The notes below the pieces were generated by a model, which made no database searches, was not told where the DNA came from, and saw nothing but the letters and a program-made list of their open reading frames with translations. This document shows, piece after piece, positions 51,837-57,852 of a stretch of 64,000 bases of DNA. The first letter of the stretch is position 1. The number at the start of each line of letters is the position of its first letter. The translations under genes were made by a program, and so were the position numbers. Location: positions 1,077,347 to 1,141,346 of the forward strand of contig CAVYVA010000001.1 of the NCBI GenBank assembly GCA_963771835.1, in the 5' to 3' direction. This stretch comes from an uncultured Actinomycetota bacterium (GTDB lineage: Bacteria > Actinomycetota > Actinomycetes > Prado026).

Positions 51837-52462
51837 TCAGCCGGCCGGGTCCAGGTGCTCGCGGGCCCAGAGCGCGGCGCTGGTGCGGTCGCCGACCCCG
51901 ATCTGCCGGAACACCCGGCCCAGGTGCGCCTTGACGGTCCGCTCGCTGATGCCCAGCGCCCGGCCGATCTGCTTGTTCGCCAGGCCTTGCGCGACCAGCT
52001 CGAGAACCTCCCGCTCGCGCCCGCTCAGCCCGTCCGACACCGACGGGCCGGCCGTGGACGGAAGCAGGGCGCGGGCGACGCGGGGGTCGAGCGGGGCGTG
52101 GCCCTCGGCCGCGGCCCGGACCGAGGCCACCAGGTCGCGGGGGTCGCAGTCCTTGAGCAGGTAGCCGACGGCGCCGGCCGCGAGCGCCTCGGCCACCCGT
52201 GGCTGGTCCGAGAACGAGGTCAGCACGACCACGGCACAGTCCGGCTGCTGCCGCAGGACTCCCTGGTCGCCGCGACGCCGTCCATCACGGGCATGGACAG
52301 GTCCATCAGCACCACGTCGGGGTGCAGCTCGGCGGCAAGCTCGACGGCCCGCCGTCCGTCCGCCGCCTGTCCGACGACGCGCAGGTCGTCGGTGCCGTCC
52401 AGCAGCGCCGCAAGACCGGCGCGGACGAGCTGGTGGTCGTCGGCCAGGAGCACGTCGATCAC
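51837..52462 (-). pseudogene. NarL/LuxR family response regulator; one frameshift
   Basis: GTG at 52462 (GTGA overlap with the kinase stop). The REC domain is VIDVLLADDHQLVRAGL...VVLMDLSMPVMDGVAAT. It is followed by ...PDCAVVVLTSFSD and the HTH LSGREREVLELVAQGLANKQIGRALGISERTVKAH in ORF 51837..52232. The frame switch is at ~52265. Confidence 0.88.
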
Positions 52463-53753
52463 GGCCGCGTCACCACCAGCCGCCAGCGGGTGCCGGCGCC
52501 GGGCGCCGACGCGACCTGGAGCACGGCCCCGGCGCGGTCGGCGAGGTCTCGGACGACGCGCAGGCCGAGGTGGCCCTCGGGCGGGCTCGCCAGCGTCGCG
52601 GGTACGTCGAAGCCGACGCCGTCGTCCTGCACCGACAACGTGACCGTTTCCTCGGTCACCGCCAGGGAGACGTCGACGTGCTCGGCGGACGAGTGCCGCG
52701 CGGCGTTGCGCAGGCGACTCCTGGGCCACCCGGTACACCAGCCGCTCGCCGTCCTCGTCCAGCCAGGTGCGGCCGTCCGCGGGCAGGTCCAGCCGCACCG
52801 TCGATGTCCCGGGTCCGCATCGTGCCGGCCAGGTCGGTCAGCGCCGCGACCAGCCCGGACGAGCGCAGGCTCGGCGGGTAGATGTCGACCAGCAGCGACC
52901 GCAGCCCGCCGATGGACCCGCGCACGGCGGCCGCGGCCGTGCCCAGGGTCCCGGCCAGCTCGCCGCGGCCGTCGGCCTCGGCCCGGTCGGCCGCTCCCGT
53001 GACCGCGAACGATGCGGCGGCGAGCTCCTGGACGACGCCGTCGTGCAGGGTCGCGGCGATCCGGCGCCGCTCGTCGGCCGAGGCGTCGACCGCATGCTCG
53101 AGCAGCGCGACCCGCTGGGCCTGGGCGGTCTGCACCCGGTCCAGCAGCCGCCACAGGATCGGCAGCATCAGCGCGACGAGCAGCAGCAGGCTGGTCATGG
53201 TGATGCCGGCGAAGCCGCGCCACAGCTGGCTCGTGCGGGTGGTCACGGTGTCGTACGGCAGATAGGTCTCGAACAGCAGCGGCCGGCCGCTCGGAGTCCA
53301 GACCGGACGGTAGACCTCGAGCAGCTTCCCGCGGCCCTGCTCGTACTTGTTCTCCGGGCGGTCAGGTCGCTGACCTCGGCGTGCGTGGTCGGGTTCTCGA
53401 GCACCTGACGCTCCTCCTCGCCGAGCGCGAACGTGGCGCCGATGATGCGCGGCTCGTCGGAGTACAGGATCCGCCCGTCCGGGGTCCAGATCTTGACCCG
53501 GACGACGGCGTCGCCGAGCACGCGGGTGCGGACCGCGTCGTCCAGCCGGGCGAGGGCGGCGGGCGACCCGGTCAGCAGGGCGTCCTCGAGGGCGGGCTGC
53601 ACGGCCGAGGCGGCGAGCAGGTCGGTGGTCTGCGCAGCGTCGTTGACGGCCTCCCGCTCGGCGACCTTGCGGCTGGCGACAGCGCCGGCGACGGCGACGA
53701 CGACGAGCGACCGCGGCCATGGCCGCGACCACCTGCGCGAAGATCCGCCGCAT
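52459..53753 (-). pseudogene. sensor histidine kinase (HisKA_3/DesK-NarX type) with extracytoplasmic sensor domain; frame broken four times
   Basis: ATG at 53753 opens MRRIFAQVVAAMAAVA (TM1). The sensor domain is RKVAEREAVNDAAQ...VRVKIWTPDGRILYSDEPRIIGATF... and then ...RPENKYEQGRGKLLEVYRPVWTPSG. TM2 follows, then the H-box ERRRIAATLHDGVVQEL and the ATPase LSVQDDGVGFDV...GHLGLRVV. Frame switches are at ~53705, ~53362, ~52800 and ~52718. Confidence 0.85.
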
Positions 53754-53889
53754 CCGGACCGGGCGGTCGGCCGGCCCGGGACGCCGGCCGACGCCGGACA
53801 CGGTGACCCAGGGCGGGACGCCGGTCGTGCGGCGGCACCGCGGGGACCGGTGCGGTCCGCGCGGTGCCGCCGCCCGGAGGTGTCCGCTG

Positions 53890-54298
53890 TCACTGGTGCG
53901 CGGCGCCGTCGTCCCCGCCGTGCTTGCCGCTCCCGGCGCTCGGCCGCTCTGGCCGCCGTTGTCGTCGCCCGGCTCGGCGTGCGTGGTCGCGCCGCCGTTG
54001 TCGTCGCCGGCTCGGCGTGCGTGGTCGCGCCGCCGTTGTCGTCGCCGGGCTCGGCGTGCGTGGTCGCGCCGCCGTTGTCGTCGCCGGGCTCGGCGTGCTT
54101 GGTCGCGCCGCCGTTGTCGTCGCCGGGCTCGACGTGCTTGGTCTGCCCGCCGTTGTCGTCGGCGGCCTGGGCCGCAGCCACCTGGGCGGGGACCCGCACC
54201 GGGACGCTCTGGGCGAAGGATGCGTTGCCGGCCAGGCCGGTGATCGCCGGGACGGCGGCGGCGACGGCCGCCGCGGTGAAGATGAGCAGTCGCTTCAT
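53890..54298 (-). pseudogene. secreted tandem-repeat protein, about six copies of GDDNGG(A/Q)T(K/T)H(A/V)EP; frame broken in the repeats
   Basis: ATG at 54298 opens the signal peptide MKRLLIFTAAAVAAAVPAITGLAGNASFA. The repeats read ...DDNGGQTKHVEP GDDNGGATKHAEP GDDNGGATTHAEP GDDNGGATTHAEP, then (other frame) GDDNGGATTHAEP GDDNGGQ.... The plausible end ...SAGSGKHGGDDGAAHQ*, with stop 53892..53890, is in the third frame. No family recognised. Confidence 0.7.
53952..54162. repeat. 39-bp tandem repeat array (about 5.4 units) encoding the 13-aa repeats; unit 2 is 38 bp
   Basis: Units are 53952-53990, 53991-54028 (38 nt, reading GCCGG where its siblings have GCCGGG/GCCCGG), 54029-54067, 54068-54106 and 54107-54145, plus a partial unit. 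Confidence 0.85.
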
Positions 54299-54453
54299 GG
54301 GGTGCTCCTCGATCGTTGGGTTCGACTGCTCTCCATTGGCGGGGACGGCTGGTCTCGTCCGCCATCGGACCTTGGCACTAGTACCACGTACCCGGACCGG
54401 GCGGAGTTCACCGCGTCGGCCCGGGACGGCCCGACGCACCCGGTGACGGGGCG

Positions 54454-55014
54454 CTACGCGCAGCGGGCCGAGGCGCCCAGACGCCGGTAGCGCACCTGGT
54501 GCCCGTCCGGCCAGGTCAGGACGAACGACGCGACCGCCCGGACCCGGGTGCCAGGCCGACAAATCTGCACGCGCGAGCGCTGGGCGTCGGCCCGGTTGCG
54601 CTGCGGCGCGGAGGGCTTGGCCGGGGTGACGTACACCCAGTGACCCCGGCCGCGGTACTCGGCGACCTTGAGCACCGCGCGCACCCAGTACGCCCGGCCG
54701 GCGGGACAGGCCAGGCTCGGGCCGGTCGCGTAGACCGTTGCGCCGACGATGTGCACGCGGGTGGCCCCGAGCGTCGCGCACCCGGACGGCAGCGGCCCGC
54801 GCGGAACCTTGTCCCAGCGGACAGCCGGCAGCTTCGGTCCTACCGGCGTCGCGGGCCCGGAGGCGGTGGGACTCGGCGAGGCGGTCGTGGGGGCCGGCAG
54901 GGCCGACGAGGCGGTGGGTGAAGGCGACCGCCTGGGCGGGTCGCCGGTGCATCCGGTCAGCCCCAGGAGCGATCCAAGAACGACCACAGCACACAGCGCA
55001 CGGACACGTCGCAC
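54454..55014 (-). CDS. hypothetical lipoprotein
   Basis: GTG at 55014. Signal peptide plus lipobox VRRVRALCAVVVLGSLLGLTGC, then a Pro/Ser/Thr-rich linker and a ~110-aa Cys-containing domain. No family recognised. The longer ORF to 55116 is less likely. Confidence 0.65.
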   Translation of the reverse strand: MRRVRALCAVVVLGSLLGLTGCTGDPPRRSPSPTASSALPAPTTASPSPTASGPATPVGPKLPAVRWDKVPRGPLPSGCATLGATRVHIVGATVYATGPSLACPAGRAYWVRAVLKVAEYRGRGHWVYVTPAKPSAPQRNRADAQRSRVQICRPGTRVRAVASFVLTWPDGHQVRYRRLGASARCA

Positions 55015-55132
55015 GACTCTCCCCCGTCGACCCGGCCGACCACTGGCCGGCCACTGACCGGCCAGGTGGCCGGCGACGGGATCGTGCCTGCTGCGTGCGA
55101 CCTTGTCCAACGACACGCCGACGGCACAGGAC

Positions 55133-55165
55133 GAAGGCCCGGATCGACAGACGACCCGGGCCTTC
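55133..55165 (-). terminator. hairpin immediately 3' (on the minus strand) of the orphan tRNA-Glu 3' fragment
   Basis: GAAGGCCCGG-n13-CCGGGCCTTC, a perfect 10-bp stem. Probably the native terminator of the tRNA-Gln/tRNA-Glu unit, displaced by the islet. Confidence 0.45.
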
Positions 55166-55171
55166 GCTGCC

Positions 55172-55199
55172 GTGGCCCCGACGGGATTCGAACCCGCGC
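55172..55199 (-). repeat. orphan copy of the 3' 28 nt of tRNA-Glu (direct repeat, putative distal att site)
   Basis: 27/28 identical to 57779-57806 (GTgGCCCCGACGGGATTCGAACCCGCGC versus GTaGCC...). No D-arm or anticodon arm can be folded upstream of it. Confidence 0.8.
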
Positions 55200-55413
55200 C
55201 CTGCTACCTGGCTAGCCGGCGACCCTGACTCGCAGCCTTGCCGACTATGCAGGACCAGCCGGCCACCTGGTGTTGTGGCTCGTGAGTGGTTTGCATCCCG
55301 TCAGCAGCTGTTGTCCTGGAGTAGTTCACAACAACGACGCAATCCCCGACGGCGGGGGGCACGGGTAGCCCCCTTGGTGTTCGCCGCCGTGGAGAGCGGG
55401 TCGTGACAGTCTG

Positions 55414-56502
55414 TCAGGACACGGCCCAAGCAGCGGGATAGGCGTCTTCTGAGCCTCCTGCGTAGCCAGTTATCACCCAGATGTGTGCGTCGCCTGGGGT
55501 CAGGATGTCGGTCACCTGGGGATCGATGGCGACCGTTTGAGTGTCGGAGTTGCCGGACAGGATTCCATTGTTGGTGCCCGTGTCTTTCACGACGGGTACC
55601 GGAATGCTGGTTTCCTGACCCGACTTGAGGTCGACGCCGACCAGAGTCTCGGTCATGTAGCCCTGGGTGATCATCCAGACGTCAGCGGCGCCGAGTGCCA
55701 TGGGGAAGGCCCAGCTTGGAGTCGCTGTCCCCTTGTACGCAGTCTGGGATTGTAGGGAAAGGTCGCTCGCCGCAAACCGGCTGATCGTCCCGGGGCTGAC
55801 GATATACACGGTGTCCCCGCCGTGCAGTACGACTGAGTCTTTCGGCACGAGCCAAAGATTTCCGGCCGCCGACTTCGGGCTGCTGTCGGTCGGGAGAACA
55901 TTCAGCGCCACGTGGCCATCCCAGGCTGTCACTCGTGTTCCCAGCGTCGGGACATCGCCGTCGGGCAGAGCGACGGTCGTCCAGACCTGGTCCTGCGGGG
56001 TGAACGAGAAGAGTTGCTGACTGTCGACCACCGCTACCCACAGCGACCCATCGGGGGCAGAGGCGAGGTCGACGGCTCGGCCTCCGCGACCGTCGCCCGC
56101 GTCCTTCCAGGGCCCCTCGTGTGAATCGATCGAGCCGGTCGACGGGTCATAGGAGACCAGGACCGAACCCCAGACGGCCCAGACGACCCCGCCGTGTGTG
56201 GTGACAGCCCCCCGAAGCCAGTCAGAGCCGTCGTCAGAAAGGACTACCGTCTTGCTTTGACCAGTCGCCGGATCGAGGTCATCGAGTACGACTGAGTTGT
56301 TCACGTCTGTACGCGTCAACGCCCAAATGTGACCGGTTGCTGGGTCGAGTGTGGTCGCCCGGAACCCCGCCGGAAGGGTGGTGGAGATCGGCGTCATGGA
56401 TCGCACCTGCGCCGCGGGCGCTTGATCACGTGTCGTGGCGGTCCCACAGCCTGCAAGCAGCAGCGCAACACCCAGCGGAGCCGCCACACGCACGGCCCTC
56501 AT
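55414..56502 (-). CDS. hypothetical lipoprotein, beta-propeller-like repeat architecture
   Basis: ATG at 56502 overlaps the upstream stop (ATGA). Lipobox LLLAGC. About seven recurring blade-like segments are centred on hydrophobic-W motifs (GHIWALT, GVVWAVWG, GSLWVAVV, QVWTTVAL, GNLWLVP, DVWMITQG, AHIWVITG). No family assigned. Confidence 0.7.
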   Translation of the reverse strand: MRAVRVAAPLGVALLLAGCGTATTRDQAPAAQVRSMTPISTTLPAGFRATTLDPATGHIWALTRTDVNNSVVLDDLDPATGQSKTVVLSDDGSDWLRGAVTTHGGVVWAVWGSVLVSYDPSTGSIDSHEGPWKDAGDGRGGRAVDLASAPDGSLWVAVVDSQQLFSFTPQDQVWTTVALPDGDVPTLGTRVTAWDGHVALNVLPTDSSPKSAAGNLWLVPKDSVVLHGGDTVYIVSPGTISRFAASDLSLQSQTAYKGTATPSWAFPMALGAADVWMITQGYMTETLVGVDLKSGQETSIPVPVVKDTGTNNGILSGNSDTQTVAIDPQVTDILTPGDAHIWVITGYAGGSEDAYPAAWAVS

Positions 56503-57323
56503 CGCACAGCCCCGTAGGTCTGGAAGTGCCTGTGGTCGCCCGTTACGTAGGGCGAGTAAGCGAAGTCAGGACGGTTCTGAACAATCGCAGTCGTAACTCC
56601 GGCGCTCCAGTCCGCCCAGCCGCTGGCGCCGTGCAGGCGCATCGTCTGGTTTGTATTCGGCGTCGCTGAACCGAAGTTCGACATCGGCATACCCATGTAC
56701 CCGCTGGGACCGCTCCATGTCTCGTTGGCTGCGGCCATGAACCCGGAGATCGGGTAGACCACACACGACGAGTCCGTGAGCGTGCTGTTGTTGTAGTACG
56801 TCAGCCAACAGTTGTCAGAGGACGAGTATTGGATCCGATACGTCACAAGGCCGCTCAGACCCAATGATCCCATGTGCTTGATGAAGTAGAAGCCGTTGGG
56901 CTCGAGCTGCTCAAAGTAGAGCAGGTACTGGTTGTACGAGTAAATGCAGTTGATATCGAAGGTGCAGTTGCTGATTGTGTGGCCTCGGGTCACGAGGCCA
57001 CTAGCCCATCCGATCTGCAGCCAGGCGCTGTTCGCCGTGTTGAAGTTCGCATCCACGTACCCAATCGAATGCGCGTCGTTGTTGATCGGGATCGGCGCCA
57101 ACTGCGGCGGTGTCTGGATCTGGCCGTCAACACCGTTGTAGCCGTAGTACGGGTTCGAGTCGCCAGGGCAGACCACGGCTCCGCTGGTACTGGCAGTCAG
57201 TTGAGCCGAGTAGCCGTACCCGCCACACGGGCCAGACGCGCTCGCCACACCATTTCCGAAGCCGACCAAGGCAACGCCGACACAGCACGCGATGGCAACG
57301 CTAGTCAGGCGCCGAAATGCCAT
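56499..57323 (-). CDS. hypothetical secreted Cys-rich protein, 274 aa
   Basis: ATG at 57323. Signal peptide MAFRRLTSVAIACCVGVALVGFGNGVASA. The mature part is rich in Tyr/Asn/Ser/Gly with 8 Cys. About 52% GC. No family assigned. Confidence 0.7.
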   Translation of the reverse strand: MAFRRLTSVAIACCVGVALVGFGNGVASASGPCGGYGYSAQLTASTSGAVVCPGDSNPYYGYNGVDGQIQTPPQLAPIPINNDAHSIGYVDANFNTANSAWLQIGWASGLVTRGHTISNCTFDINCIYSYNQYLLYFEQLEPNGFYFIKHMGSLGLSGLVTYRIQYSSSDNCWLTYYNNSTLTDSSCVVYPISGFMAAANETWSGPSGYMGMPMSNFGSATPNTNQTMRLHGASGWADWSAGVTTAIVQNRPDFAYSPYVTGDHRHFQTYGAVR

Positions 57324-57742
57324 GGGGTCCCCCTTCTGGGCGCAACGTACTCAGGGCGAAGAGCGACAGGCAATCCTGAAGTTCATTCCGGTGTCGCGCG
57401 CCAGCGACTTCGTACACACAGTCCCCCACACGTTGAGCCGGAGTGAGTGAACTGCTAGGCCACGGGGTGACTGGGGGGTGGCCAGAAATGTTCCGATGAG
57501 CTGGTCGGCCGTGAGGGTCGGGGCGCCCAGCTCGACGAAGCGCAACGAGCGAGAGTACGGCTGAGTCGGCAAGGACGATCGCGCCGACGGCGGGGGGCCG
57601 ATGGGTTACACAGCGAGTCCCTGGTTGTGCAGCCCTATCACTGTGGGGTATCGGCAGGCATCGCCTGCTACCAAGCCGTATCGATCTTTACCACGTCGTC
57701 CGTGGTCAAAGTGCGGTCAAGATCGTTTGTGGCCGGGCCAAT

Positions 57743-57777
57743 GGCAAAGGCCCAGGTCGCTGACCTGGGCCTTTGCC
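57743..57777 (-). terminator. perfect 15-bp hairpin directly 3' of tRNA-Glu
   Basis: GGCAAAGGCCCAGGT-cgctg-ACCTGGGCCTTTGCC starts 3 nt after the tRNA 3' end on the minus strand. No U-tract follows. Confidence 0.5.
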
Positions 57778-57779
57778 AG

Positions 57780-57852
57780 TAGCCCCGACGGGATTCGAAC
57801 CCGCGCTACCGCCTTGAGAGGGCGGCGTGCTAGGCCGCTACACAACGGGGCC
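57780..57852 (-). tRNA. tRNA-Glu (anticodon CUC)
   Basis: Hand-folded cloverleaf. Acceptor GGCCCCG/CGGGGCT (G1-U72 wobble), D-stem GTGT/GCAC, anticodon stem CCGCC/GGCGG with loop CT-CTC-AA, and T-arm GCGGG-TTCGAAT-CCCGT. No encoded CCA. Confidence 0.85.

Follow-up and report, generated by a model that had tools for sequence, protein, structure and literature searches.

Glutamic peptidases are, to our knowledge, the rarest and least studied of the protease catalytic classes. Three families with this chemistry are neprosin, scytalidoglutamic peptidase (SGP) and the HC7 mucinase (PMC9343461; PMC13003899). Eqolisins and neprosin are made as zymogens that carry a prodomain at the N-terminus (PMC9343461, PMC6154417). 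The hallmark residues of the eqolisins are W39 (assigned with a question mark), G41, D43 and G44, then Q53 and G55, W67, E69 and P72, and E136 (PMC6154417), and neprosin uses the catalytic dyad Glu188/Glu297 (PMC9343461). A single functionally assessed bacterial eqolisin has been counted (PMC9343461), to which the di-glutamate mucinase HC7 adds another example from bacteria. Here we analyse two overlapping genes, A and B, in a 64,000-nucleotide (nt) stretch of DNA from an uncultured Actinomycetota bacterium (GTDB Prado026; GenBank assembly GCA_963771835.1, contig CAVYVA010000001.1, positions 1,077,347 to 1,141,346), hereafter the window, whose numbering is used throughout. Gene A encodes a secreted protein that, judging from its structural model, very likely has the fold of the glutamic peptidases, and gene B encodes a lipoprotein modelled as a beta-propeller. 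The two genes recur side by side in other genomes and lie here in a tRNA-associated islet of foreign composition.

Protein A and its fold

Protein A is a 274-aa precursor that opens with a classical Sec signal, MAFRRLTSVAIACCVGVALVGFGNGVASA followed by SGPCGG, so that the signal ends VASA before the first mature Ser. A first-pass annotation, made from the sequence alone, had described an exported protein rich in Tyr, Asn, Ser and Gly with eight Cys. This description is correct for the precursor; C13 and C14 lie within the signal peptide, and mature A therefore has six Cys, which form three family-conserved pairs (C33/C52, C120/C126 and C172/C187). The 245 residues of the mature protein include 20 Tyr, 19 Asn, 26 Ser and 27 Gly, with an isoelectric point of 5.26 (family median about 5).

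An exhaustive HMMER run over 1.84 billion cluster representatives returned 77 representatives of the A family, including 57 below 1e-10. This genuine but rare family was revealed by that run alone, since word-indexed homologue searches with A and B were nearly empty (2, 2 and 5 matches; one relative for A). Library searches with A and B against Pfam, NCBIfam, PHROGs, PADLOC and PDB sequences found nothing significant for either protein, in agreement with the earlier statement that neither belongs to a nameable family, and profile searches gave no confident match of A or B to a well-characterised family. Pfam matched neither A nor any of the 43 full-length family members, even at E<=10 and with Peptidase_A4 and Neprosin included, and the A-family profile had no match among PDB sequences. 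A 25-residue match to the SPV1 capsid protein VP4 (E 0.013) at the signal-peptide junction was rejected as a low-complexity chance match. Members of the family lack a prodomain or prosegment: in A, 3 residues separate the signal peptide from the first conserved Cys, and in the family as a whole this distance is about 0-30 residues. One member (P0050, 483 aa) fuses an A-type domain to an uncharacterised N-terminal domain of 226 aa, for which we found no Pfam, NCBIfam or PDB sequence match; this fusion could be a functional clue.

The AlphaFold2 (AF2) model of A, computed from the 77-member family alignment, is all-beta and confident (predicted local distance difference test (pLDDT) 89.5; predicted template modelling score (pTM) 0.85). 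It shows the two-sheet, glucanase-like beta-sandwich of the eqolisins and the fold of the neprosin catalytic domain. In a Foldseek search of the PDB with this model, the top five matches were neprosin/celiacase entries (E 1e-6 to 6e-6; template modelling (TM) scores 0.55-0.60). Scytalidoglutamic peptidase was also matched (2ifr_A, E 1.5e-5, TM by query (TMq) 0.51 and by target (TMt) 0.66; 2ifw_A, TMt 0.65), and the HC7 di-glutamate mucinase was the third family, with TM about 0.45. Glutamic peptidases thus came first, as the first-pass annotation had guessed in proposing an eqolisin (G1)-like sandwich. A viral structure library gave generic concanavalin-like matches only.

GH16 beta-glucanases, lectins and galectins were also significant Foldseek matches to A, which raises an alternative that we regard as rather unlikely, namely that A is a concanavalin-like glycan-active protein (a two-Glu glycoside hydrolase or a lectin) and B a glycan-binding propeller, the two capturing and cutting, or simply binding, surface glycans. 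A conserved pair of Glu on beta-strands is just as characteristic of retaining glycosidases; Tyr and Trp are abundant in A, which, like glycosidases, has no prodomain; and a paper title describes the HC7 family as a bridge between glycan hydrolases and peptidases. B, for its part, weakly matches Reg_prop, the propeller of glycan-sensing two-component regulators. Yet every GH16 and lectin match ranks below the glutamic peptidases, which have clearly higher TM scores (0.55-0.66 vs 0.3-0.5) and superpose with lower root-mean-square deviation. In addition, the GH16 motif ExDxxE is absent from A, where E141 is not conserved, whereas the eqolisin motif W-x-G-x-D-G is present in the A family. We consider A well supported as a hydrolase of the glutamic-peptidase fold, with 'peptidase' as the leading guess for its activity.

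Candidate catalytic residues

Conservation was counted over the 77-member family, with denominators that vary by column. Two glutamates stand out at 94% each, E138 (67/71) and E201 (64/68). Further conserved positions are H85 (57/63), Q103 (56/69) and G105 (67/68), a cluster of W62 (55/60), G64 (58/61), D/N66 (56/61) and G67 (56/62), the aromatic residue Y/F136 (67/71), and W239, which is invariant (69/69).

For comparison with the eqolisins we used an SGP sequence that agrees with the PDB at 206/206 residues. A motif scan placed the SGP segment AWVGIDGD best at family columns 61-68, with a score of 28.5 against 5.9 at the next-best offset; 0.2% of shuffled motifs reach the score of 28.5. The program hhalign independently picked out the same block, at an insignificant probability. 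Residues 61-68 of A read GYNGVDGQ and the family consensus is GWxGVDGQ, so that the A family carries W-x-G-[VI]-[DN]-G, the counterpart of eqolisin W39-x-G41-x-D43-G44; the correspondence is firm for that segment only. The catalytic-Gln block AILQTGFD fell best at 100-107 (AWLQIGWA), ranking first of 238 offsets without reaching significance, and the W67/E69 and E136 blocks ranked 8 and 16 at the predicted positions. These results revise one of the three motif pairs of the first-pass annotation: NSAWLQIG had been paired with SAWVGIDG, but AWVGIDG matches residues 61-68 instead and WLQIGW is best paired with ILQTGF of the catalytic-Gln block, while YLLYFEQLEP with AWYEWYP (rank 8) and AANETW with AEWIVE (rank 16) are plausible but weak. 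Global and low-threshold modes of hhalign gave no trustworthy full-length alignment of the A family with the eqolisins, and yielded a low-confidence path in another register.

In the mapping that we prefer, W62/G64/D66/G67 would correspond to W39/G41/D43/G44, Q103/G105 to Q53/G55, Y136/E138 to W67/E69, and E201 to E136, Q53 and E136 being the invariant catalytic dyad of the eqolisins. The motif order is left intact in this way, and the two Glu have a similar spacing (63 residues for E138-E201 vs 67 for E69-E136), with four beta-strands between them in the A model; SGP likewise has four strands between its two Glu. The mapping calls for the insertion of a strand at 85-93, on which H85 lies, and for a disulfide loop at 113-126. 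Alternatively, E138/E201 may represent a neprosin-like di-Glu dyad bridged by water, although in the model the strand count and the spacing would favour E138 as the counterpart of eqolisin E69 over that of neprosin E188.

Protein B, a predicted lipoprotein propeller

The open reading frame (ORF) of gene B follows A with the ATGA overlap at 56499-56502 that had been noted at first reading and that reads TCAT on the plus strand. Its 362-aa product begins with MRAVRVAAPLGVALLLAG followed by Cys, comprising an n-region, an h-region and the lipobox LLLAG-C19 (residues 16-19; Cys codon 56446-56448), which agrees with the pattern [LVI][ASTVI][GAS]C and would make B a lipoprotein, again as first proposed. 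The deposited protein (P0003) has 327 aa and begins at Met36, and the signal peptide and lipobox are therefore lost from the public annotation. This is probably a misannotated start site, going by the sequence; we favour the longer version because the lipobox Cys is kept in homologues and because tight linkage to the A gene recurs, with 4-nt overlaps in two loci. A lipobox Cys is encoded by the downstream gene at each of the seven other loci where this gene could be read (MLVAC, LIAGC, GMAGC, AVASC, LLAAC, LGVAC and CIGAC).

The AF2 model of B shows a propeller of 6-7 blades and about 25 strands (pLDDT 75.9; pTM 0.77), in line with the roughly seven blades suggested in the first-pass annotation, preceded by a disordered lipoprotein tether (residues 1-33). 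Foldseek returned 774 matches at E<=1e-3, the top 50 of which were all propellers. These matches are generic and include Kelch, WD40, BamB, Vgb lyase, regucalcin, YncE and the lipoprotein BT2095; at the blade level Pfam gave weak matches to Reg_prop, SGL, DUF5074 and PQQ_2, and one weak relative resembles a Vgb-type propeller. Homologues of B were retrieved by exact look-up. No catalytic motif was recognised in B, which looks, from its model, like a binding scaffold.

Linkage of A and B across genomes

Ten distinct A-family loci were read (the window, L001, L006, L007, L010 and L013 to L017), all of them reached through A homologues, which are 25-50% identical to A of the window. In eight of the ten, the next gene downstream on the same strand is a B homologue, the exceptions being L015 and L017, and the co-occurrence envisaged when the pair was first noticed is thus found in other genomes; the spacings are given in Table 1. 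The surroundings include an ABC transporter, BrnT/CopG and PIN toxin-antitoxin genes, and a Cas1 gene. Because these surroundings differ between loci, A and B appear as a conserved unit. The loci have a G+C content (GC) of 57-68%, and one comes from an Actinomycetales metagenome-assembled genome. A further A locus has a downstream gene of 324 aa that is unverified as B. A genome locus search with narrow alignments recovered one locus (L006), and pattern scans with B gave no match. We found no description in the literature of an obligate linkage between a propeller lipoprotein and a gene of glutamic-peptidase fold.

Both A and B are genuine genes rather than chance ORFs, since A has 77 relatives, B has homologues at 25-37% identity, and both proteins fold confidently.

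At two of these loci toxin-antitoxin genes lie near the pair, a BrnT and a CopG-like gene in L010 (201-1447) and a PIN-like ORF in L006 (4211-4615), which fits accessory or mobile surroundings. At L015 the gene downstream of the A homologue is on the opposite strand. The solo A-family gene of L017 (1000-2053) ends 143 nt from a convergent tRNA-Gln(CTG), the tRNA species that also neighbours the islet of the window, which hints that insertion may recur at sites linked to tRNAs.

Effector-immunity modules usually have the same layout, with a closely overlapping partner gene behind that of the enzyme, and A and B could be read as a toxin-immunity pair, with A a Sec-secreted hydrolase directed against the envelopes of competitors and B a surface-anchored immunity protein that blocks the cleft of A. 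The location of the pair on mobile, compositionally foreign DNA, its patchy distribution and the toxin-antitoxin genes near it in L010 and L006 are in keeping with this, as is the missing prodomain, given which A would need some other means of self-protection. Beta-propellers can be tight enzyme inhibitors, an example being BLIP-II of Streptomyces. We nevertheless hold this explanation to be decidedly unlikely: PADLOC and PHROGs gave no match to a toxin or defence family, no dedicated secretion or delivery domain is present, and A genes occur alone in L015 and L017.

A tRNA-associated islet of foreign composition

By its composition and gene content the DNA looks like that of a high-GC actinobacterium. 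A and B occupy a 2.6-kb stretch of 57-66% GC, compared with 72-79% in its flanks, and GC at third codon positions (GC3) is 0.74-0.79 in the two genes against 0.97 in gltX, leuA and ilvE. The islet is foreign by composition. It begins directly 3' of a tRNA-Glu(CTC) gene, upstream of which are tRNA-Gln and gltX, and the 3' end of this tRNA is repeated at the far border as a 28-nt direct repeat (Table 1), so that both borders carry a tRNA-end repeat, as expected for tRNA islands. The likeness of the two copies runs on loosely, with gaps, through the next hairpin to about 60 nt (55134-55199 vs 57747-57806). ARAGORN called an irregular-armed tRNA-Leu(CAG) at 55172-55256 on the minus strand, with its anticodon at position 30. 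We rejected it as a true tRNA, since the Rfam tRNA model misses it (E<=0.1 and gathering threshold), its arms are irregular and its 3' third copies tRNA-Glu; it is probably an att-like remnant or pseudo-tRNA.

The ORF listing holds no integrase or recombinase gene between the repeats, where A and B are the only genes. We found no match in plasmids or phages by tblastn, and a narrow-alignment locus search of viral contigs and JGI metagenomes gave no related locus. As nothing matched in plasmid, phage or viral-contig collections, an origin from a phage or plasmid is unsupported, and because an integrase is missing as well, we read the locus as a compositionally foreign islet associated with a tRNA gene, its mobility machinery being either lost or supplied in trans. 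The first-pass annotation had taken the pair for a horizontally acquired cell-surface module, and composition, the tRNA-end repeat and the adjacency in other genomes support this.

The 455-nt non-coding leader between tRNA-Glu and gene A is the expected location of a promoter. In it we found no sigma-70-like site, no Rfam family and no likeness to the upstream regions of homologous loci, nor was a conserved non-coding element found upstream of A across loci. Past the stop of B stands a GC hairpin, CCCCG-CCGT-CGGGG, which may be a weak terminator (low confidence); a terminator scan did not call it. A 29-nt direct repeat, 79% identical between its copies at 55332-55360 and 57570-57598, lies just within both islet ends, and each copy holds this hairpin sequence. 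Its role is unexplained, terminators or the inner borders of a mobile unit being two options.

The small size of the islet, the missing integrase, the lack of a recognised promoter and the frameshifted appearance of neighbouring two-component genes could also suggest that the pair is the functionless, decaying remnant of an integrated element, or that it consists of chance frames in GC-rich DNA. This is highly improbable. Compared with homologues of 25-50% identity, neither ORF is interrupted or shortened, and export signals and conserved residues are kept; moreover, both proteins fold confidently and their linkage holds in unrelated surroundings.

Table 1 Features of the A-B islet and spacing of the two genes at other loci
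Feature	Coordinates	Strand	Basis and remarks
Gene A	56499..57323	minus	274-aa secreted precursor; ORF listing, AF2 model, Foldseek, family of 77 representatives
Gene B	55414..56502	minus	362-aa lipoprotein precursor (predicted); ORF listing, AF2 model, Foldseek
ATGA, stop of A overlapping start of B	56499..56502	minus	TCAT on plus strand; suggests translational coupling
Shine-Dalgarno-like GAAGGGGGA	57328..57336	minus	4 nt upstream of the ATG of A; read from sequence
Signal peptide of A, residues 1-29	57237-57323	minus	AXA cleavage site after residue 29
tRNA-Glu(CTC) 3' end, proximal copy of 28-nt direct repeat	57779..57806	minus	Repeat search, 27/28 identical; tRNA confirmed by ARAGORN and Rfam
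Distal copy of tRNA-Glu 3'-end repeat	55172..55199	minus	27/28 identical to proximal copy; far islet border
Non-coding leader, tRNA-Glu to gene A, 455 nt	57324..57778	minus	Expected promoter location
GC hairpin CCCCG-CCGT-CGGGG	55344..55357	minus	57 nt past stop of B; sequence and repeat search
A-B spacing, window		same strand	ATGA overlap
A-B spacing, L001 and L006		same strand	GTGA overlaps (4 nt)
A-B spacing, L007 / L010 / L013		same strand	Gaps of 4 / 7 / 1 nt
A-B spacing, L014		same strand	Overlap as called
A-B spacing, L016		same strand	N-terminus of B only on contig

Genes beside the islet

Beyond the distal border, a frameshift near 52232 apparently divides a LuxR-type response regulator (51837-52798, minus strand): the ORF 52220-52798 covers Response_reg positions 1-63, and the ORF 51837-52232, which is in a different frame, covers positions 74-110 together with GerE. 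The neighbouring sensor histidine kinase (52459-55054, minus strand) seems to spread over at least three frames, with the sensor domain at 53243-55054, HisKA_3 at 52656-54365 and the ATPase-like end at 52459-53223. Either the kinase gene is a decayed pseudogene or the local assembly contains indels; A, B, gltX, leuA and ilvE are intact. A tandem array at 53952-54172 (39-nt unit, 5.7 copies, 94% matches) encodes PGDDNGGATTHAE repeats downstream of the signal-peptide-like MKRLLIFTAAAVAAAVPAITGLAGNASFAQS (minus strand, start near 54300), and the open frame shifts within the array. Just outside the islet, a 220-aa ORF at 54454-55116 (minus strand) has a lipobox-like LLGLTGC and no Pfam match; it may encode a further orphan lipoprotein or be a spurious ORF of GC-rich DNA.

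Proposed mechanism

We tentatively propose that A is a hydrolase, probably a peptidase, that is exported and produced alongside its partner, a lipid-anchored propeller by which it would be tethered or restrained, and that the two genes form a self-contained, horizontally moved operon. The first-pass suggestion of a surface enzyme with a partner or inhibitor is thereby kept as a hypothesis. On this proposal A would leave the cell via Sec, form its three disulfides and take up the curled beta-sandwich of the glutamic peptidases of eqolisin or neprosin type. The conserved carboxylate and amide residues would probably gather in the concave cleft of A, with E201 as general base, Q103 in the L-Q-x-G block as its assistant, as in eqolisins, and E138 as the counterpart of eqolisin E69 or neprosin E188. 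Judging from the model, A is probably an active hydrolase. Peptide bonds would be its most likely substrates, although we put the chance that A is a peptidase at slightly below even.

B would be produced in step with A through the start/stop overlap, lipidated at Cys19 and displayed on the outer face of the membrane, its propeller held on a tether of roughly 25 residues. There it most likely would bind A one-to-one, a partnership that we suggest because the two genes are tightly coupled and keep their adjacency and because both products bear export signals; the odds of a direct, putative A-B complex seem to us evenly balanced. Bound in this way, B could either tether A and its substrates at the cell surface, or restrain a prodomain-less hydrolase near the envelope of the producer.

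Several observations weigh against this proposal. Those glutamic peptidases that have been characterised are zymogens active in acid (PMC9343461, PMC6154417), whereas A has no prodomain and nothing indicates an acid-living host. The fold of A is also that of glycoside hydrolases and lectins, and no sequence-level link ties A to Peptidase_A4 (G1), Neprosin or PDB sequences, even by profiles: hhalign of the A-family profile against SGP and aspergilloglutamic peptidase (AGP) aligned just 12 columns (GYNGVDGQ with AWVGIDGD), at an insignificant probability of 1.5%. The candidate catalytic Q103 is replaced in about 19% of the family, and the sequences allow three possible residue mappings of the candidate catalytic set. 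Finally, L015 and L017, both short contigs, have no B downstream of their A homologue.

A more specific version of the proposal, unlikely in our judgement, is that A is a glutamic peptidase without a prodomain and that the co-translated propeller lipoprotein provides its latency, localisation or self-protection in trans, the pair representing a new actinobacterial family spread as a two-gene islet.

Comparison with known systems

The A family combines the predicted fold of glutamic peptidases with many of the signature residues of eqolisins, yet has no detectable sequence homology to these enzymes and no prodomain. Should A prove active, it would establish a new family of peptidases and pose a testable question, namely how a prodomain-less protease of the acid type is controlled at the bacterial surface. 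If A is instead a lectin or a glycosidase, the pair would be a more routine accessory surface module. In either case, the A and B families both lack a Pfam or NCBIfam model, and the lipoprotein signal of B is missed in public annotation.

In its mode of insertion, the locus resembles tRNA-targeted genomic islets, being low in GC and GC3, inserted directly 3' of tRNA-Glu and bordered on the far side by a 28-nt repeat of the tRNA end, but it differs from them in its small size (2.6 kb, two cargo genes) and in lacking an integrase or other mobility gene. B has the same predicted propeller fold as BamB, BT2095, YncE, Vgb lyase and regucalcin, and, with BamB and BT2095, a predicted lipid anchor; unlike these proteins, it has neither sequence-level family membership nor a recognised catalytic motif.

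Of the glutamic peptidases, the plant neprosins (DUF239/PF03080; 7ZU8, 7ZVA-C) provide the best structural match of A (E 1e-6, TM 0.55-0.60). A likewise has two highly conserved Glu, and its conserved His, Gln, Trp and Tyr could mirror neprosin H134, Q173, W175 and Y214. In contrast to neprosin, A is bacterial, gives no sequence match, lacks the Neprosin_AP (PF14365) prodomain and is not a zymogen, and its two Glu are 63 rather than 109 residues apart. HC7 of Bacillus cereus (8PN3/8PN5/8PMU) is, like A, a secreted bacterial protein of the same fold class, and has a Glu-Glu catalytic pair (Narimatsu et al. 2024, cited in PMC13003899); HC7 has a carbohydrate-binding module (CBM5) whereas A is a single domain, and its structural match to A is weaker (TM about 0.45). 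The eqolisins (MEROPS G1; 2IFR/2IFW and the aspergilloglutamic peptidase 1Y43; Peptidase_A4), endopeptidases with an acid optimum and no sensitivity to pepstatin, share with A secretion, disulfides and a 7+7-type beta-sandwich (TMt 0.66), and A has the W-x-G-x-D-G, L-Q-x-G and aromatic-x-Glu blocks and a later Glu in the same order, with Glu-Glu spacings of 63 and 67 residues, respectively. A differs from them in having no homology detectable by hidden Markov models, no prosegment and a Gln that is not invariant, in being about 40 residues longer, including the inserted strand 85-93 and the disulfide loop 113-126, and in its actinobacterial hosts, where the gene is mostly paired with a lipoprotein gene (8/10 loci). 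The missing prodomain sets A apart from every characterised glutamic peptidase of the same fold compared here. From sequence, models and gene order together, the A-B pair is best filed as a sequence-orphan family with a predicted glutamic-peptidase fold, no prodomain, an obligate-looking lipoprotein partner and a place in a tRNA-flanked islet.

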